From the NCBI GenBank assembly GCA_026984455.1, contig JALSSC010000064.1, positions 39,363 to 103,362 on the forward strand: a stretch of 64,000 nucleotides of DNA, written 5' to 3'. The stretch comes from Chromatiaceae bacterium. Lineage in GTDB: Bacteria > Pseudomonadota > Gammaproteobacteria > Chromatiales > Chromatiaceae. The notes beneath the pieces are model-generated. The model had not been told where the DNA came from. It made no database searches and saw only the letters and a program-made list of their open reading frames with translations. This document shows, piece after piece, positions 10,814 through 47,087 of the stretch. A program made the translations under genes and the position numbers. Every line of letters starts with the position of its first letter. Position 1 is the first letter of the stretch.

Positions 10814-11007
10814 CTATACCCGCGGCACGTGAATAGTGTGCTACTGCGGGCGTCCCTCGCATCCCTGGGCTGCGTTGTGTCCCTGCGATGACTCGCTGCC
10901 GCGCCTCGCCCGGAGGCACGAGGAACACCCTCGAAAAACGAGGATTGGCACAGGGAAGTGCCGTCTGCGGACCGATAGATGGAAAGGTTCACGTGCGACG
11001 GGTATAG
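10814..11007 (-). mobile_element. MITE-like foldback repeat, copy B
   Basis: Ends are CTATACCCGCGGCACGTGAAT ... TTCACGTGCGACGGGTATAG, an imperfect ~20-bp TIR flanked by TA. The interior aligns in reverse orientation with copy C. It lies 9 bp upstream of the M61 peptidase ATG. Confidence 0.7.
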
Positions 11008-11180: not shown

Positions 11181-12794
11181 CTACTGCGAGATCTGCCCAT
11201 CGACGACATGCACCACACGGTCGGCGGTGTGGAAATAACGCGCATCGTGGGAGACCACCACGAGGGTGCGGCCCTGGCGGCTCAGCTCAGGGAGGATCTC
11301 TTCATAGAAACGCCTGCGAAAGTCTGGATCCTGGTCGGCGGCCAACTCATCGAAGACGCAGATCGGGCGGTCTCTGAGCACGGCCGCAAGGAACGCGAGG
11401 CGTTTGCGCTGGCCCGTGGAGAGTGCGAGGTCGGTGAAACCGTCCGGAGTATATTGGGTCTTTTCCGACAACTCGAGTTCCTCGAGTCGGGCATTGACGA
11501 CCGCCGGATCTACATTCGGGCTGCCATAGAGACGCTCGAACAGATGGAAGTCGGTGAAGACGGCGCTGAACAGCGTGCGGTATCGGGGGCGTTCGGCATC
11601 CGTGATGGGGCGGCCATCGAGCAGGATCTCGCCGCCAGAGGGCCGGTAGAGTCCCGTCAGCAGTTTCAACAATGTTGATTTGCCACTCCCGTTGCCACCG
11701 ACGATGAAGAGCCGCTCGCCGCGACGCAACTCCAGGTCACAGGGGCCGATACAGAACAAGGGTTGTCCGTCGCGGTCCAGATATTGGAATTCCACCTGTT
11801 TGAGCGAGATCTTCTGGAAATGGTTCAAGGGGGGCGCCGACACCGAGCCATCCGATTGGCCAAGCGCCCGGTCGACACGTCCCTCGAGTTGGTAGAGGCT
11901 GACCACGGCGGCATCTATCCTTGCCATGAGCGGCAACAGATCGATGATGACCGTCAACGGCCCAAGAATAAAGAGCATGGTCGCGGCGACCTTGAGAATG
12001 GTACCGGTGCTCGAAGGCACCAGCCAGGGGACGATGAAGACCACGGCAAAGAGCACCGAATAGTTGATCATGCGACGCAAGATCATGCCTTTGACCTGGA
12101 AGATGCTGCAGGAGACCTTGAGCCGATAGGCCTGCTCGGCGGTGTCGCGTATCATCGCGTACAGGGCGTCGTTCTGATTCCGATCGAGCTTCAGTTCCTT
12201 GAATCCGCGGAGCAGACCGCTGAACTGGTCGAGGAGCCGTCCTTCGTTGCGGTCTGCCTCCAGCAGCTCCCTTCGGGTGCGTTTCCAACTGTGGATATAG
12301 ATCGGTGCCAGGACGGCATACACGACCAGCATGGCAAACAGACTCGCGGGCGAGATGCCGAGAAGGTAGATGGCGGCAATCACCAGGAGCAGCAGGGACT
12401 GGGCCACGGTCACCAGAATCACCGCCCCCTGGGCCACGACGCCCGCATCCTGAGACAGCGGCGCATAGTCACCGATTCCGCCGTGTTCCTCGATAAAGCG
12501 CAGGTCGCTACGACGGATCTTGTCGGCCAGTCTCAGGCGCAGGCGCTGCAGCGCCCCGTTTATCGCCGCGACCGAGCGGGTGCGCGCATGATGTTGGGTC
12601 ACCAGATAGATGGCAAAGGCGATCAGATACAACAGCACCCGCCGCGTGTCCAGGACGCCGAGCGCCGCATGTTCGGCGGCATCGTTCACCAAACCCAGCA
12701 TGGCGACGTTCATGGCGCCGGAGATTCCGGCCATGGTCAGAATGGTCGCGCGTGGTGCCCGGCCTTCGTAGGCCAGGAATTGCAGCAGACTCAA
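11181..12794 (-). CDS. ABC transporter permease/ATPase, YojI / cyclic-peptide-exporter type (half transporter 2)
   Basis: 537 aa with an N-terminal 6-TM domain. The NBD reads GGNGSGKSTLLKLLTGLYRPSGGEILLDG...LFSAVFTDFHLF...LSTGQRKRLAFL...DELAADQDPDFRRRFY...VSHDARYFHTADR, the pattern I recall from E. coli YojI and PvdE-type exporters. Confidence 0.85.
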   Translation of the reverse strand: MSLLQFLAYEGRAPRATILTMAGISGAMNVAMLGLVNDAAEHAALGVLDTRRVLLYLIAFAIYLVTQHHARTRSVAAINGALQRLRLRLADKIRRSDLRFIEEHGGIGDYAPLSQDAGVVAQGAVILVTVAQSLLLLVIAAIYLLGISPASLFAMLVVYAVLAPIYIHSWKRTRRELLEADRNEGRLLDQFSGLLRGFKELKLDRNQNDALYAMIRDTAEQAYRLKVSCSIFQVKGMILRRMINYSVLFAVVFIVPWLVPSSTGTILKVAATMLFILGPLTVIIDLLPLMARIDAAVVSLYQLEGRVDRALGQSDGSVSAPPLNHFQKISLKQVEFQYLDRDGQPLFCIGPCDLELRRGERLFIVGGNGSGKSTLLKLLTGLYRPSGGEILLDGRPITDAERPRYRTLFSAVFTDFHLFERLYGSPNVDPAVVNARLEELELSEKTQYTPDGFTDLALSTGQRKRLAFLAAVLRDRPICVFDELAADQDPDFRRRFYEEILPELSRQGRTLVVVSHDARYFHTADRVVHVVDGQISQ

Positions 12795-14446
12795 GACGGC
12801 ACGCCGAATCTGCTGCTGTCTGGAACCGCCTCGATCAGCCGGCCGTCGCCCATCTCGAGGATGCGATCAGCGGTATGGAAGTACTGATCATCATGGGAGA
12901 CGATCACGAGGGTGCGCCCCGATGCGCTGAGGCGGGGCAGGAGTTCCTCGTAGAGCCGACGCCGAAAGCCTGGATCCTGATCGGAGGCCAACTCGTCGAA
13001 GACACAGATCGGACGATCCTTGAGGACCGACTCGAGAAAGGCCAGACGCTTGCGCTGACCCGTGGATAGATCGATGTTCGAATAGCCCATATCGGTGTAT
13101 TGGGTCTTGTGCGCGAGATCCAGCTCGGTGAGCCACGCCTGTATCCGGTCCGGATCGTGAACGGGGACGCCATAGATACGGTCGAACAACTGGAAATCAT
13201 CGAACACGCTGGTGAACAGTGTGCGATACTGCGCCTGATCGGCATCGGTCAGCGGGACCCCGTCGAGCAGGATCTGCCCCCGTTCGGGCCGATAGAGCCC
13301 TGTCAACAGCTTGAGCAAGGTCGTCTTGCCGCTGCCGCTGGCCCCGACCACGAAGATGCGCTCGCCACGGCGAAGGGACAGATCCAACGGACCGAGCGAG
13401 AAGTCGCTGCGGCCGTCGGGCGCGCGGAAGCGAAACTCCACCCCCTGAAGCTCGATGTGCTCGAAATCCCGCCGCGGCGTGGGGGGCGGTGCATCGAGCG
13501 GCTCGGACAGTGCCGCATCCAAGCGCGCCTCCAACGCGTACAGGTTGCTGACCGCGGCATCGGCCTTGGCCAACGTCGGGGCGCCGTTCACCAGATGGGT
13601 CAGTGGGGCCATCATGAACAGCACGGCCGAGGCGACCTTATAGACGGTATTACTTGCCTCGGGCACCCATACGGGAATGGCGAACGAAACCGCGAACAGC
13701 GTGAGATAGAAGATGCTGCCCACGAGGATCACGTCATGGGTCTGGCGCTCACCGGTACGGAGCTTCAGGTGAAAGGCGGCATCCGCGGTCTCGTGGAGGT
13801 GCCCGTAATAGGCGTCGCTTTCCCGCCGATCGAGTTTCAACTCCTTGAAACCGTGAAGCAGCTCGGCGAAGTGCTCAAAGAAACCACCATCGGCGCTGGC
13901 CGCGTGGCGCAATTCCTCCCGTGTGCGCGAGAAGCGCAGGTAATAGACCGGCAAGGTCACCGCATAGATGGCGATGACCGCAAGGAGGCACGGTGGCGAT
14001 AGCCAGGCGAGATACAGGCCGGTGAATAACAGGATCAAGACCGATTCCGCGACCGGGATCAGAAAGACGACGGCCTCCGAGATCAAGCCGATATCCTGGG
14101 TCAGGGGCGCATAGGCCGCAGCACCGCCCTCTCCCTCCACGAATCGCAGATCACCCCGGCGCACCTTGTCGATCACCCGTACCCGGAACTCCAGCACACC
14201 CCGTTCCACCGCGGTCACGGCCTGGGTCAGCGCGAAGCGACGCGCATCGAGCAGAATGGCGAATACGACCAGGTATCCGACGACGAGTTCGGTCCCCATG
14301 GCCCCTTGATTCGCTGCATATTCGGCGCCCAAGTTGGTGAACACCAGCAGAAGAATGGTCGCTATGCCCGACACCGCCGTCATGGCGGCGATCTCCCGCT
14401 GGGGGGCATCACTGGCCTCTCGACCCAGGAACTCGAGCAGCTTCAT
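12791..14446 (-). CDS. ABC transporter permease/ATPase, YojI / cyclic-peptide-exporter type (half transporter 1)
   Basis: Internal start MKLLEFLGREASD... at 14446 within track ORF 12791..14668; the longer reading runs into repeat copy G. It is a paralogue of the downstream gene with a 4-nt overlap. NBD motifs: GASGSGKTTLLKLLTGLYRPERGQILLDG...LSTGQRKRLAFL...DELASDQDPGFRRR. Confidence 0.85.
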   Translation of the reverse strand: MKLLEFLGREASDAPQREIAAMTAVSGIATILLLVFTNLGAEYAANQGAMGTELVVGYLVVFAILLDARRFALTQAVTAVERGVLEFRVRVIDKVRRGDLRFVEGEGGAAAYAPLTQDIGLISEAVVFLIPVAESVLILLFTGLYLAWLSPPCLLAVIAIYAVTLPVYYLRFSRTREELRHAASADGGFFEHFAELLHGFKELKLDRRESDAYYGHLHETADAAFHLKLRTGERQTHDVILVGSIFYLTLFAVSFAIPVWVPEASNTVYKVASAVLFMMAPLTHLVNGAPTLAKADAAVSNLYALEARLDAALSEPLDAPPPTPRRDFEHIELQGVEFRFRAPDGRSDFSLGPLDLSLRRGERIFVVGASGSGKTTLLKLLTGLYRPERGQILLDGVPLTDADQAQYRTLFTSVFDDFQLFDRIYGVPVHDPDRIQAWLTELDLAHKTQYTDMGYSNIDLSTGQRKRLAFLESVLKDRPICVFDELASDQDPGFRRRLYEELLPRLSASGRTLVIVSHDDQYFHTADRILEMGDGRLIEAVPDSSRFGVPS

Positions 14447-14572
14447 CTTGAGGATTTTCCCCGGGATGGTGGGCAAATCAGATGCCGGAGGGGCCTGTGG
14501 CTGGTGGCGCGGGGGGCGATGGGGGCGGACACGGACACGGCAGTTGAACCTGGGGCGGATATCATGCCCTAT

Positions 14573-14757
14573 TATACCCGTCACACATGGATTTTCGGAT
14601 CTGCGCGTATGCCTCGCGTCCTGGGGCATTGGGAACTTTTCTCGTCGCTCACCCTGGACGCAGGACACGAGAATGCGCTCGATAGATCGGGGCGTGACAC
14701 GGGGAGGTGTCGGTTACGGACCAAGGGAAGGAAAACACCAGGGGCGACCGGTATATA
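14573..14757 (-). mobile_element. MITE-like foldback repeat, copy G (degenerate)
   Basis: Ends are TATACCCGTCACACATGG ... GGGGCGACCGGTATATA. The interior aligns with copy B in the same orientation (for example CTGCGCGTATGCCTCGCGTCCTGGGG and CACGAGAATGCGCTCGATAGATCGGGG). Confidence 0.55.
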
Positions 14758-23092: not shown

Positions 23093-23298
23093 TATACCCG
23101 TCGTACGTGAATATTTCTGTCCTTCGGTTCGTAAACGGCACATCCCTGTGCCACTCCTCGTGTTTCGAGGGTGTTCCTCGTGCCCCTGGGCAAGGCGCGG
23201 AAGCGAGTCATCGCGGGGACTATGGCGAGCAATCGCCACACCGCCCAGGGGTGCGAGGGGCGGCCGCAGTAGCAAAATATCCACGTGCGACGGGTATA
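23093..23298 (+). mobile_element. MITE-like foldback repeat, copy C (best preserved)
   Basis: TATACCCGTCGTACGTGAATA ... ATATCCACGTGCGACGGGTATA has TIRs matching at 19 of 21 positions, TA on both flanks and an internally self-complementary arm (CCTCGTGCCCCTGGGC / GCCCAGGGGTGCGAGG). It sits in the divergent promoter region between the genes starting at 23046 (-) and 23340 (+). Confidence 0.75.
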
Positions 23299-24565: not shown

Positions 24566-24661
24566 ATCGAGAGGTTCAGATTGCCATAGTCTAGGATGAT
24601 CCTCGTGGAAAACACCATTGTCTATTTTGGGGAAAACGTGCCAGTATGACCCGATGGCTGA

Positions 24662-24716
24662 CCCTGCCCCGGAGCCTGTCTGAACGAAGACGAGGTCTTC
24701 ACTCAGGCACTACAGT
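24662..24716 (+). repeat. conserved ~55-nt hairpin leader motif, copy 2
   Basis: CCCTGCCCCGGAGCCTGTCTGAACGAAGACGAGGTCTTCACTCAGGCACTACAGT abuts an ATG at 24717. It matches the minus-sense sequence of 1705-1761. Confidence 0.55.
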
Positions 24717-24869
24717 ATGCGAGGTGATCCGGTGAGAAACTGCAAGCGCTGTCGTCTGAGTCATACCTGTAACACCATGCCCGGGATCTGCCTGTGGATC
24801 CCCTATGCCCTGATCGCTGCGGTATCGCTGGGGCTGATTGCCCTGTTCGTGTCCCAGGAAATGTTCTGA
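24717..24869 (+). CDS. possible 50-aa CxxC membrane peptide (below the ORF-track length cutoff)
   Basis: My translation: MRGDPVRNCKRCRLSHTCNTMPGICLWIPYALIAAVSLGLIALFVSQEMF. It has one clear TM helix but no Shine-Dalgarno. The only support is the conserved leader motif shared with the sheath gene. Confidence 0.25.
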   Translation: MRGDPVRNCKRCRLSHTCNTMPGICLWIPYALIAAVSLGLIALFVSQEMF

Positions 24870-24937
24870 TCGGGGCCTCCCGCAAGGGCGACGGGCCCCG
24901 TCACTGGCGGCCCTCTGGAGGACAGGGCCTTGACCGC

Positions 24938-25120
24938 CACGGGTCCGGGCACTAGAGTCTCCCGGCCCCGGGGTGTTCGGGAAGCCGGTGAAAATCCGGC
25001 ACTGCCCCCGCAACGGTGAATGGATGGCCCCCCGAACGGGGGCCGGACGCTGCACGGCCACTGGGAGACCCCTGGGAAGGCGCATCCGTCCCGCTCCATG
25101 AGTCCGGAGACCGGCCCTGA
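24938..25120 (+). promoter_or_regulatory. cobalamin (B12) riboswitch
   Basis: GGGAAGCCGGTGAAAATCCGGCACTGCCCCCGCAACGGTGA, then GCCACTGGGAG...GGGAAGGCG, then the B12 box AGTCCGGAGACCGGCC at 25101-25116. It lies upstream of a TonB-dependent receptor and a cobalamin adenosyltransferase. Confidence 0.85.
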
Positions 25121-25122
25121 GG

Positions 25123-25304
25123 CATACCGGTCGCACGTGAATAAGTCGTGTTGCGCGGGTGCCCCTCGTGTCCCTGGGTAAGGCCCTGCCTGCCGCAGGC
25201 AGGGCGGAAGCGAGCCGTGGCAGGGACCATGGCGGGCTTTCGCCACACAGCCCAGGGCTGCGAGGGGCGGCCGCAATCGCGGGAGATTTGCGTGCGACGG
25301 GTAT
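25123..25304 (+). mobile_element. MITE-like foldback repeat, copy D (internal deletion plus extra hairpin)
   Basis: CATACCGGTCGCACGTGAATA ... TTTGCGTGCGACGGGTAT. The right half aligns with copy C (GCGGAAGCGAGCC..GGGACCATGGCGGGC...CCCAGGGCTGCGAGGGGCGGCCGCA). It lies between the riboswitch and the btuB start. Confidence 0.7.
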
Positions 25305-25425
25305 CCCGTACCGGTGTTGCGGTGGGCCGCACCGAGGTCTGTCCTCGCGCGCTGTGTCGTCGGGGACGGGCCTGTACACGCCCCTTGCATCCCGGTTGGT
25401 ATCCACGCCACCGAGATCCCTTCCC

Positions 25426-27360
25426 ATGCGTAGAACCCTCATTCCGGGCCTTTGCCTGGTGGCCAGCCTGGCCGCCACGGCCGGCCAGCCCCCCATCGTC
25501 ATCAGCGCCGGCCGCACCGCCCGGCTCTCCATCGACACCCCGGCCAGCATCCGTGTGGTGGACCGCGCGGAGATCGAGGCCAGCGCCGCCACCAGCCTGG
25601 CCGGGTTGCTCGCCGGCCGCGGCCTGCACGTGAGCGACCGCTTCGGCGACGGCAGCGACGCGCTCCTGGACCTGCGTGGCTTCGGCGCCGCGGCCGGCTC
25701 CAACACCCTGGTCCTGGTGGACGGCCGTCCCCTCAACAATGCCAGCGATCTGGCGCCCCCGGATCTCTCCACCATCGACCTCGGCCTGGTGGAACGGGTG
25801 GAGATCGTCCAGGGCAGCGCCGGGGTGCTCTATGGCAACCAGGCCGTGGGCGGTCTCGTGAACATCGTCACCCGCAGGCCCGAGGCCTTCGCTGCGGCCC
25901 TGACCGCCGGCGGGGGCAGTTACGACGGCTACGAGGCGCGCGCCCGGCTCTTCGATCGGATGGACAACGGCCTGGGTTATCGCGTCTCGGCGCGCAAGCG
26001 GGAGACGGACAACTATCGCGAGCAGAACCACTCGGACCTTCAGGACCTGGGGCTGCGTCTCGATTACGACTACGGCGGCAGGCGGCTGTTCTTCGAGCAG
26101 GAATACCACTGGAAGCACCTCCAGGTGCCCGGCAGCCTGTTCAGCGACGAGTTGGCCGCGGACCGCCGACAAGCGGTGCCCGACTATCGCGGCGACTTCA
26201 CCCGCAGTGAGACCCTGGTGAGCCGCCTCGGCCTGCGCCAGTCCCTGTGGGGGGGCTGGTATCTGGAGGGCGAGGTGACCTATCGCGAGAATCACAATCC
26301 CTTCAAGCTGAGCTTCCGGGGCCTTCCGGGCCAGCGCGCGGATCAGAACCGTTATGTCTGGACCTTCAATCCGCGCCTGGTCGGGGTGGTTCCCCTGGGG
26401 ACGGCGGATCTGCGGCTCACCCTGGGCGCCGACTACGAGGACACCGACTACGGCCTGCGCACGGCCTTCGGCCCCCAACGGATCGGGCAACGCATCTATG
26501 CCCTCTATGGCCAGGGCAGCGCCCTGGTGGGCGCCGGCCTGACCGTCACCGGCGGCCTGCGCTGGGCGCGGGTGGAGAACGGCATCTTCGACGGCAGCGC
26601 CAAGACCCACCTGGACGACGAGGTGGGCGTGGGCTCTCTCGGCCTGTCCTGGCGACCCGCGGCGGGCTGGCGCCTGTTCGCCCGTTGGGACCAGAACTAT
26701 CGCTTCGCCAAGGTGGACGAGCACACCAATGTGGCCTTCGGCCAACCTACGGGCATCAAGAATCAGACGGGCGATTCCTATGAGGCCGGGGCGGTCTTCG
26801 ACGCCGGTCCCGTGCGCGCGGACCTGACCCTGTACCGCCTGATCCTGCATGACGAGATCGCCTTCGACTCCAGCACCTTCTTCAATATCAACCTCGACCG
26901 CACCCGCCGCGACGGGGCGATCGTCTCGGCCGCCTGGCGGCCGGCCGCGGGTTGGCGCCTGGGCGGTGACTATACCTATACGGAGGGCCGTATCACCGAT
27001 GGGCCCTTCGACGGGGAGCGCATCCCCCTGGTGCCCCGCAACGAGGTGCGCCTGTACCTGGATCACGACCTGGGACAGGGCTTCGGCCTGCGCGGGGAGT
27101 GGCGCTGGGTGGACGAACAGGTGGTGGGGGCGGACTTCGCCAACGACCTGGAGCGTCTCGATGCCTACGCGGTGCTCGATCTGGTGGGGCGCTACCGGCG
27201 CGGTCCCTGGTCCCTGGACCTGCGTCTGAACAATCTTCTGGACGAGCGGTATGCAGGCACCGGCGCGGCCGGTTTCGATGCCGGTTTCGCCCGGCGCGCG
27301 GCCTTCTTCCCCGCGCCGGAGCGCAATTTCTGGCTCACAGCGACCTATGGGTTCGATTGA
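25426..27360 (+). CDS. btuB: TonB-dependent outer-membrane receptor, probable cobalamin receptor
   Basis: Internal start MRRTLIPGLCLVASLAATAG (signal peptide) of track ORF 25159..27360, whose 5' part is repeat copy D. It has a TonB-box-like PPIVISAGR, a plug domain (VEIVQGSAGVLYGNQAVGGLVNIVT) and a C-terminal aromatic residue. The B12 riboswitch lies upstream. Confidence 0.8.
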   Translation: MRRTLIPGLCLVASLAATAGQPPIVISAGRTARLSIDTPASIRVVDRAEIEASAATSLAGLLAGRGLHVSDRFGDGSDALLDLRGFGAAAGSNTLVLVDGRPLNNASDLAPPDLSTIDLGLVERVEIVQGSAGVLYGNQAVGGLVNIVTRRPEAFAAALTAGGGSYDGYEARARLFDRMDNGLGYRVSARKRETDNYREQNHSDLQDLGLRLDYDYGGRRLFFEQEYHWKHLQVPGSLFSDELAADRRQAVPDYRGDFTRSETLVSRLGLRQSLWGGWYLEGEVTYRENHNPFKLSFRGLPGQRADQNRYVWTFNPRLVGVVPLGTADLRLTLGADYEDTDYGLRTAFGPQRIGQRIYALYGQGSALVGAGLTVTGGLRWARVENGIFDGSAKTHLDDEVGVGSLGLSWRPAAGWRLFARWDQNYRFAKVDEHTNVAFGQPTGIKNQTGDSYEAGAVFDAGPVRADLTLYRLILHDEIAFDSSTFFNINLDRTRRDGAIVSAAWRPAAGWRLGGDYTYTEGRITDGPFDGERIPLVPRNEVRLYLDHDLGQGFGLRGEWRWVDEQVVGADFANDLERLDAYAVLDLVGRYRRGPWSLDLRLNNLLDERYAGTGAAGFDAGFARRAAFFPAPERNFWLTATYGFD

Positions 27361-27920
27361 TGAGGATCTACACCCGCCGTGGGGATGGCGGCGACACCGG
27401 GCTGGCCGAAGGCGGCCGCCGCCCCAAGTGGGACCCCCGGGTGGAGGCCTTGGGCGCGCTGGACGAACTCAACTGCCACCTGGGCCTGGTGCATCTGCAT
27501 AGTGTGGACGCCGACCTGGACCGGCTGTTGCAGGGCCTCCAGGAGGATCTGTTCGCGTTGGGCGCGGAGCTGGCCTCTCCTTCGACCCCGAGGCTGACCG
27601 GGGAGCGGGTGGCCGCGCTGGAGGCGGAGATCGACCGCCTGGAGGCGTCATTGCCGCCGTTGCGTGGCTTCGTCCTGCCTGGTGGAGGCGCGGCGGCGGC
27701 CCACTGCCACCTCGCCCGGGCGGTCTGCCGCCGGGCCGAACGGCGCCTGTTTCGACTCGCGCGCGACGAACGGCTAAACTCCGCTTCGCTGAAGTACCTG
27801 AACCGCCTGTCCGATCTGTTGTTCGTCCTGGCGCGGCACCTGAATCGCCACGCAGGCCGTAGCGAGACCCTTTGGGGTCCTGGAGCCGCCGTCCCGCGAC
27901 AGACCTGGGGATCCCGGTGA
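27360..27920 (+). CDS. ATP:cob(I)alamin adenosyltransferase, PduO type
   Basis: MRIYTRRGDGGDTGL...ALGALDELNCHLG...LQEDLFALGAELA...VLPGG..AAAHCHLARAVCRRAER. The ATG overlaps the btuB stop by 1 nt. Confidence 0.85.
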   Translation: MRIYTRRGDGGDTGLAEGGRRPKWDPRVEALGALDELNCHLGLVHLHSVDADLDRLLQGLQEDLFALGAELASPSTPRLTGERVAALEAEIDRLEASLPPLRGFVLPGGGAAAAHCHLARAVCRRAERRLFRLARDERLNSASLKYLNRLSDLLFVLARHLNRHAGRSETLWGPGAAVPRQTWGSR

Positions 27921-41364: not shown

Positions 41365-41533
41365 TATGCCCGTCCCCCATGGATCGTCGGTCACTGCGGG
41401 CGGCCTTTGCGCCCCGGGGACGGGGTGGCGACTGTTGGCCCTGGTCGCGCCATCCTCAAGGCTTGCCTCCGCGCCTTGCCCGGGGGCCGGAGGAACGGCC
41501 TCGAAAAACCGGCAACCCGCGTGCGCTGGGTAT
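41365..41533 (-). mobile_element. MITE-like foldback repeat, copy F (degenerate, shortened)
   Basis: TATGCCCGTCCCCCATGGATCGTCGGTCACTGCGGGCGGCC ... GGAGGAACGGCCTCGAAAAACCGGCAACCCGCGTGCGCTGGGTAT aligns with copy B in the same orientation and has an internal deletion. Confidence 0.5.
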
Positions 41534-46864: not shown

Positions 46865-46954
46865 GCGGGGGGCTGTTCGCATGGGGTGACGCTGCCGCCG
46901 GTCAGATGACGCCCACCGGGACAGTACCGGTCCTGGCCCCGTTGCAGGAGAACA

Positions 46955-47087
46955 GGCCATCGTGGGGGCGCCTGGAGAGGACGCGGCAGCGAGTCAGGAC
47001 GGGGATGGCGAGCCATCGCTGCACCACTGACGAGTGTGAGGGATGGCGGCAGTAGCGAAATATTCATACTCACGTGCGACGGGTATA
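46955..47087 (+). mobile_element. MITE-like foldback repeat, copy E (right half only, or degenerate)
   Basis: GACGCGGCAGCGAGTCAGGACGGGGATGGCGAGCCATCGC...GGCGGCAGTAGCGAAATATTCATACTCACGTGCGACGGGTATA aligns with the right half of copy C. The left boundary is unclear. Confidence 0.5.

Follow-up and report, generated by a model that had tools for sequence, protein, structure and literature searches.

A MITE-like foldback repeat between the aptamer and the expression platform of a cobalamin riboswitch in a Chromatiaceae bacterium

In this study, we analysed the 5′ leader of btuB in a 64,000-nucleotide (nt) stretch of DNA from a Chromatiaceae bacterium (GCA_026984455.1, contig JALSSC010000064.1, positions 39,363 to 103,362 of the forward strand), which is called the window here and in which position 1 is the first letter. 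The leader contains a cobalamin riboswitch, and comparison with related leaders places a 181-nt foldback repeat in its J1/13 linker, where it parts the aptamer from an intact expression platform. The repeat belongs to a family that resembles MITEs (miniature inverted-repeat transposable elements). A preliminary description of the same DNA had considered a broken B12 control of btuB or a foldback that itself became the regulated structure. A third outcome, absent from that description, appears to be the most likely one, namely that the repeat is a self-contained and tolerated insertion.

Results

The aptamer and the inserted repeat

An Rfam covariance search matched the full RF00174 model (model positions 1-189) to 24954-25133 on the + strand with a score of 74 bits (E 2e-16), where the gathering threshold is 31.5, and this is the sole riboswitch match within the 64-kb window. 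The aptamer itself extends from 24954 to 25122 (+). It had been described as intact, and the complete conserved core was indeed located in the model alignment (GGGAA, GGUG..A..CC, GCCCCCGC, GCCACUG and the B12 box). The B12 box AGTCCGGAGACCGGCC lies at 25101-25116, as described before, the GCCACUG motif at 25057-25063 (+) and the L5 loop CUGCCCCCGCA at 25002-25012 (+). Helix P1 is formed by a 5′ strand at 24967-24974 (+) and a 3′ strand at 25114-25121 (GCCCTGAG, given as GCCCUGAG in the RF00174 model alignment), and the model columns beyond the P1 3′ strand are unpaired or non-canonical. The P2 hairpin is absent from this aptamer.

Family alignment and folding place the foldback repeat, here called copy D, at 25124-25304 (+) in the single-stranded J1/13 linker. 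It measures 181 nt, or 183 nt if one flanking base per side is counted, and begins 7 nt past the B12 box and 2 nt past the last P1 pair. The earlier statement that the element directly follows the aptamer therefore stands, with its start (25123, 6 nt after the box) and its length (182 nt) corrected. The RF00174 match overlaps copy D by its final 10 nt (25124-25133), for which the model columns are unpaired or non-canonical. In copy D, the terminal inverted repeats (25124-25143 and 25285-25304; 5′ terminus ATACCGGTCGCACGTGAATA, 3′ terminus GATTTGCGTGCGACGGGTAT) agree at 16/20 positions, and an extra inner hairpin is found at 25184-25204. Copy D RNA is predicted to form a single extended hairpin with a folding energy of -125 kcal/mol and a z of -9.5, a stability that was reached by 0/200 shuffled sequences, with a near-continuous terminal helix of 5 + 13 pairs and ~69 pairs overall. 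In the window, the terminal motif of the family was counted 7 times, whereas chance alone would give 0.03 occurrences. The insert is thus repeated and hairpin-prone, as had been proposed. A scan of 24600-25600 detected no terminator-like site (GC-rich hairpin followed by a U tract) anywhere in this interval and no promoter-like site inside copy D, and the sequence directly 3′ of copy D is CCCGUACC.

The leader including the repeat is identical in three further assemblies (NCBI GCA_054025075.1, ENA ERZ27262647 and Logan SRR33214773), each of which differs from the window by just 2 single-nucleotide polymorphisms across 5.6-7.9 kb. Therefore, the repeat-bearing leader is no assembly artefact. 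No presence/absence polymorphism of the repeat was seen within the species, as these three assemblies of the same population all carry it.

According to a partition-function calculation on the full leader, 69 pairs are expected within the repeat and 0.04 between it and other sequences. Removing the repeat leaves the predicted fold of the remaining leader unchanged, and this fold contains a long-range helix that joins the L5 region to P13.

The expression platform and related leaders

For comparison, the btuB loci of 19 relatives were used, comprising 15 gammaproteobacterial metagenome-assembled genomes (41-49% BtuB identity) and four closer loci (L055, L056, L058 and L060; 56-59%). RF00174 precedes btuB in 19/19 relatives, and in every one of them a hairpin whose loop reads GCGG(N)GGGC starts 21-27 nt past the end of the B12 box. 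In the window this hairpin (GGUGUUGCGGUGGGCCGCACC, 25313-25333, +, with the loop GCGGUGGGC at 25319-25327) is found 202 nt after the B12 box, which becomes 21 nt without the 181-nt repeat. The loop is invariant across the 20 leaders (19 relatives and the window). The stem covaries, with compensatory changes in 4/4 outer pairs, and 90% of the alignment cells are paired vs 11-54% with a slid partner. Since the loop is complementary to L5 (GCCCCCGC), the hairpin was assigned as the P13/L13 regulatory hairpin, which makes a kissing contact with L5 in cobalamin riboswitches (PMC5028336). The L5 x P13 duplex of the window was calculated at -20.5 kcal/mol.

The spacing of the leader leads to the same position for the repeat. 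From the end of the aptamer model to the ATG, 14 of the 15 relatives measured have 114-140 nt (L018, where the script placed the start at a GTG, has 185 nt), whereas the window has 292 nt, or about 111 nt minus the repeat. The uninterrupted ortholog L055 has a P1-to-P13 linker of 10 nt; in the window the repeat is flanked by 2 nt from P1 and 8 nt to P13, the latter being the remaining 3′ part of the J1/13 linker in the leader comparison (CCCGUACC, 25305-25312, +).

Downstream of P13, minimum free energy (MFE) folds predict a central platform hairpin (25335-25373, +), the sequence of which is not conserved with the orthologs. It is followed by a conserved block, CACGCCCCUUGCAUCC (block 2; 25377-25392, +), that is kept in all five syntenic leaders and can pair with L13 and the 3′ side of P13, and that may therefore be an anti-sequestor or switching sequence. 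A further hairpin, AUCCCGG/CCGAGAU (25389-25417, +), is predicted by MFE folds over a GAGA resembling a Shine-Dalgarno (SD) sequence. Its position corresponds to that of the GCCUCG/CGAGGC hairpin, which sequesters the SD in L055 and L056. The P13 hairpin, L5 x P13 and P13 x block 2 energies are all retained in the window leader. As judged from these comparisons, the native translational platform, consisting of P13/L13, switching block, SD-covering hairpin and ATG, is present in full downstream of the repeat.

This arrangement differs from the one put forward in the preliminary description. There, the platform was expected directly after the B12 box, a position that is instead taken by the P1 3′ strand, a linker of ~10 nt and then P13. 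A platform replaced by the insert does not agree with P13/L13, the switching block and the SD-sequestering hairpin, which are all located downstream at 25313-25417. Nor does the insert separate the platform from its target; what it separates is the aptamer from the platform. A platform lying wholly upstream of 25123, which had been named as the opposing arrangement, is contradicted by the leaders of the relatives.

All 19 related btuB leaders are without the repeat, the nearest BtuB being only 59% identical. Because the family recurs in the window and in metagenomes and 19/19 leaders are without it, the repeat was regarded as an insertion.

Two further observations on the related leaders are added here. 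In 11/15 distant relatives (L002-L005, L007, L010, L012, L015 and L018-L020) two hairpins with GCGG(N)GGGC loops are present, the first ~10 nt after P1 and the second 80-110 nt further, 3-6 nt before the SD, which suggests either that L5 has two alternative kissing partners or that one hairpin is the true partner and the other a decoy. Moreover, the aptamer periphery between P6 and the B12 box (25017-25100 in the window) ranges among the closest orthologs from about 30 nt in L055 to about 330 nt in L060, and the extra peripheral segment of L056 contains the palindrome CCCCTCTCCCGCAAGCGGGAGAGGGG. Leaders of this lineage seem to gather extra structured RNA at permissive sites.

The repeat family in the window and in metagenomes

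Members of the family carry the terminal repeat consensus TATACCCGTCGCACGTG at both ends. Alignment revealed seven family copies in the window, relics included, each of which appears to lie between genes. Besides copy D, these are the intact copies C (206 nt, 23093-23298, +, between divergent genes) and B (192 nt, 10815-11006, -); a diverged 183-nt copy with both termini recognisable (14573-14755); the degenerate copy A (5386-5592, +); copy E, with an intact right terminus and a degenerate left end (46890-47087, +); and an internal relic (41462-41509, -).

Scanning of Joint Genome Institute (JGI) metagenome contigs for exact matches to TATACCCGTCGCACGTGR yielded at least 117 loci, and the 1.0 Mb of loci listed contain at least 99 complete elements. 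These contigs share only the elements with the window and are thus not from its genome. The elements fall into size classes of 164-168, 171-200 and 201-230 nt (about 165, 180 and 206 nt), and intact members all fold to near full-length hairpins. Copy C is 93-95% identical to elements on unrelated metagenome contigs. Copy D is more diverged, at about 82-84% identity to its nearest kin (~17% divergence), one of which, the L163 element, belongs to another organism and carries the same extra inner hairpin. Every intact copy has TA at both ends, which as a target-site duplication is inseparable from the palindromic termini. The elements are short and non-coding, have terminal inverted repeats and occur in many dispersed copies, as is typical of MITEs, and on these features we class the repeat as a non-autonomous MITE-like foldback family.

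Searches for the origin of the family gave negative results. No transposase-bearing partner with matching termini was found among the loci listed, and the lone long pair of termini (L100, 2.3 kb), considered as an autonomous parent, was rejected, as the sequence between them carries housekeeping genes (radA and a cNMP-binding gene) but no transposase. Among the loci listed there was no clean empty site; two matches spanned a junction, neither of them clean. No Rfam family matched the repeat even at a permissive threshold, the repeat terminus had no match in viral contigs, and a strict regular expression for the aptamer core found no other repeat insertion beside a cobalamin riboswitch in the 1 Mb of loci.

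Copy D has a GC content of 69% vs 58-64% in its nearest kin (L163, L121 and L093). Its substitutions relative to them are biased from AT to GC (15-21 against 4-8) and keep or improve pairing, and in hairpin stability per nucleotide copy D ranks 7th among the 98 family elements listed. Three causes of this pattern are conceivable, namely amelioration toward the GC content of the host, a subfamily that is rich in GC, and selection for tight folding. Compensatory evolution of copy D in situ was considered, but the differences are not assignable to selection at this site, as subfamilies differ likewise and the inner hairpin is also present in L163.

An APH/AAA_33 gene and a gene for a YgaP-like membrane protein diverge from an intergenic region of 303 nt, nearly all of which is taken up by copy C. 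Therefore, both promoters must lie inside the repeat or at its edges.

Genes and promoter of the locus

The btuB gene (25426-27360, +) encodes a TonB-dependent receptor of 644 amino acids (aa) with the Pfam domains Plug and TonB_dep_Rec_b-barrel. It is followed by a gene for a PduO-type cobalamin adenosyltransferase (27360-27920, +), the start codon of which overlaps the btuB stop codon (TGATG). The displaced btuB ATG at 25426 and the adenosyltransferase had already been recognised in the preliminary description. The riboswitch thus sits in the 5′ leader of btuB-pduO, genes of B12 transport and metabolism. L055, L056 and L060 have riboswitch, btuB and pduO in synteny with the window, and three of the four closer loci share the order thioredoxin-TPR, small open reading frame (ORF), riboswitch, btuB, pduO, FKBP and ispH.

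The btuB frame is open upstream across the whole repeat (25141-25425, +; the mechanical ORF begins at 25159). Both the signal peptide and an alignment with relatives put the true start at 25426, and the open frame upstream probably just reflects how rare stop codons are where GC content is high.

A sigma-70-like promoter, TTGACC-17-TAGAGT, was found at 24930-24958 (+) by consensus match only; it is the single match in 24600-25600 vs 0.1 expected. A transcript from it is predicted to begin at about the P1 5′ strand. TTGACC is present at the equivalent relative position in L055 and L056 and, with a less clear alignment, in L060.

Immediately upstream of this promoter lies a small ORF (24717-24869, +) for 50 aa with a hydrophobic C terminus and without a Pfam family, the position of which is kept in all syntenic loci (46-50 aa). 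It is abutted by one copy of a 51-nt inverted repeat pair (1711-1761 and 24662-24712, 88% complementary), which appears to be a second repeat family unrelated to the foldback family. Elsewhere in the window, two adjoining long ORFs (11181-12794 and 12791-14668, -) have a common 214-nt direct repeat (11218-11431 and 12864-13077, 74% identical) and are probably tandem paralogues, and the region from 12 to 20 kb has a GC content of 56-62%, below that of the remainder of the window.

Discussion

In this study, we describe a riboswitch and a MITE-like repeat that are each of a known kind. What is unusual is their relative position, as the repeat lies inside a single riboswitch, across the junction that is spanned by a tertiary contact. 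We consider it somewhat probable that the repeat is a tolerated passenger rather than a new regulatory part, with btuB-pduO still largely under B12 repression. When its transcription is complete, the repeat of 181 nt would zip into a single long hairpin with paired ends. Because the two repeat ends pair together, the folded repeat would add an arm rather than 181 nt of slack, and this arm would be the third helical arm at the P1/P13 junction. The flexible P1-P13 linker would stay at about 10 nt (2 + 8), equal to the 10 nt of L055, so that the B12-dependent L5-L13 kissing contact and then sequestration of the ribosome site could still form. Potentially, the kinetics are changed, as P13 emerges 181 nt later.

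In the env8 cobalamin riboswitch, J1/13 may have any non-G sequence and a length of 5-25 nt, and P13 as a separate hairpin is bound by the aptamer in trans (PMC5028336). Regulation in pneumococcus is apparently still working with a BOX repeat between two T-boxes (PMC3049150). Copy D is not a brand-new copy, being GC-enriched and ~17% diverged from its nearest sampled relatives, yet the RF00174 score of the aptamer is still 74 bits and L13 agrees with the invariant motif.

Several points weigh against a tolerated insertion. The argument hinges entirely on fast and complete folding of the repeat, and the steps that lead from folding away to continued regulation are ones that we infer. Retention is deduced from thermodynamic folding, a model outside of which tertiary structure, ligand, kinetics and nucleases lie. 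In the equilibrium model, nascent transcripts ending at 25180-25250 pair the repeat 5′ arm with the 3′ half of the aptamer including the B12 box (34-47 pairs), and this mispairing disappears only after the repeat 3′ arm is made, which would make a kinetic trap during transcription possible. In env8, linkers above about 27-36 nt lose regulation, with loop docking slowed (PMC5028336). The duplex of block 2 with the P13 segment is weaker in the window (-13.8 kcal/mol) than in the orthologs (-18.6 to -19.1 kcal/mol), and the SD-like GAGA, 9-12 nt upstream of the btuB ATG, is weak. Among platform columns invariant in the four orthologs, 70% are kept in the window vs 86-97% in leave-one-out comparisons of the orthologs, a difference that could reflect outgroup distance or relaxed constraint; as a test of relaxed constraint these columns were rejected, since the window is the outgroup and the comparison is confounded. 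Finally, no closer relative with an empty site was found, the nearest non-self BtuB among 5.8 billion proteins being 59% identical.

Four of these points, namely the env8 linker limit, the transient pairing of aptamer and repeat, the weak SD together with the weaker switching duplex, and the reduced retention of platform columns, also speak for a different reading, in which the insertion uncouples the sensor from its output. B12 would still be bound, but the kissing contact would be too slow or absent as a result of the 191-nt separation, of transient mispairing of the 5′ arm, or of a steric clash with the extra helix. The riboswitch would then be a decaying relic, and the expression of btuB-pduO would no longer depend on B12 or would be locked in one state. 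We regard this as less probable, but as a rival to be taken seriously. All core motifs of the aptamer are present, L13 matches the motif of the 19 relatives and block 2 is conserved, and such motifs would not be expected to stay unchanged in a switch that no longer works if the insert is old, copy D being ~17% diverged from its nearest kin. In addition, the complete repeat is thermodynamically insulated from the remaining leader.

Co-option of the repeat is unlikely. Correia and ERIC repeats in mRNAs undergo processing, and a long duplex is a plausible nuclease target. The long duplex could serve as a site for RNase III or another nuclease, as a module that pauses or delays transcription, or as an alternative pairing partner of the aptamer, and the foldback would then share in the regulatory decision or take it over. 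The near-continuous terminal helix, the high rank of copy D in stability per nucleotide, its GC enrichment over its kin and the partial complementarity of its 5′ arm to the aptamer 3′ half are in line with such roles. However, the native platform is complete downstream and so needs no replacement, the full-length ensemble contains no ligand-dependent alternative pairing, and the features of copy D including the inner hairpin are shared with L163 in another organism, which makes them subfamily traits and not local adaptation. The earlier suggestion of a foldback that serves as the regulated structure likewise found no support, as the complete element makes almost no outside pairs and has no terminator or promoter signature. 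It is tempting to speculate that the foldback was domesticated, either as a selected J1/13 arm that delays P13 and gives more time for B12 sensing, or as a nuclease entry site that couples the B12 state to mRNA decay, but this is slightly less probable still. Extremely improbable, and effectively already refuted by the comparisons, is a lineage-specific native riboswitch domain: all four available sequences of the species do carry the 181 nt, but the family with the same termini is found at six other intergenic sites of the window and in at least 99 copies in unrelated contigs, the related leaders are without it, and its removal restores the spacing exactly.

With respect to known systems, the leader resembles the L5-L13 kissing-loop cobalamin riboswitches of E. 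coli btuB and env8 HyCbl (PMC5028336) in its RF00174 aptamer with B12 box and C-rich L5, in a P13 with a complementary G-rich loop, in an SD-proximal sequestering hairpin and in the control of btuB. In contrast to them, it has a 181-nt foldback, with 191 nt between P1 and P13 where the studied and related leaders have about 7-14 nt, lacks the P2 hairpin and has a weak SD. A further parallel is the pneumococcal trp operon, upstream of which a BOX repeat lies between two T-box riboswitches (Croucher et al. 2011, PMC3049150). This BOX repeat is likewise an independently folding mobile repeat that is co-transcribed in a riboswitch leader, with regulation apparently preserved. However, it lies between two complete riboswitches, whereas the repeat of the window lies inside one, at a sensor/output junction that needs a tertiary contact. 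The literature contains repeats beside or between riboswitches and, as far as an incomplete coverage can tell and as absence of evidence only, none that splits a sensor from its own platform.

The repeat itself is comparable to the ERIC/IRU elements of enterobacteria and the Correia elements of Neisseria (PMC3184786, PMC10969869), which are also non-coding, 100-200 nt long, bounded by terminal inverted repeats and able to form a near full-length hairpin, with many intergenic, often co-transcribed copies and size variants made by internal modules. In contrast to these, there is no sequence relationship (no Rfam match), and the host is an uncultured gammaproteobacterium near Chromatiaceae and Sedimenticolaceae with GC-rich DNA, in which IspH is 72-76% identical to metagenome-assembled genomes of Chromatiaceae, Sedimenticola and Thiodiazotropha. 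For the repeat family of the window, neither a transposase partner nor an IHF site or promoter was identified. With REP and REPIN sequences the family shares a palindromic, intergenic and hairpin-forming nature, but REPINs are doublets of 20-40-nt REPs that are moved by RAYT transposases, whereas the termini of this family measure 17-20 nt and have TA ends, and its interior is long and structured.

Conclusions

The sensor and the output of a riboswitch are commonly assumed to need tight, unbroken coupling. For a cobalamin switch, regulation was shown to fail once the linker exceeds about 30 nt (PMC5028336). The btuB leader described here is a natural construct in which the linker holds 181 extra nt that are able to fold on themselves, and it thus tests how much RNA can be tolerated at this site. 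If B12 control survives, self-contained hairpin repeats can enter the interior of a riboswitch without cost, which would help to explain the spread of such repeats in transcribed intergenic DNA and would provide a design rule for modules of synthetic switches. If B12 control is lost, the leader would be a clear case of a mobile repeat that deregulates vitamin uptake. Should the foldback have been domesticated, a mobile element would have become a working riboswitch module.

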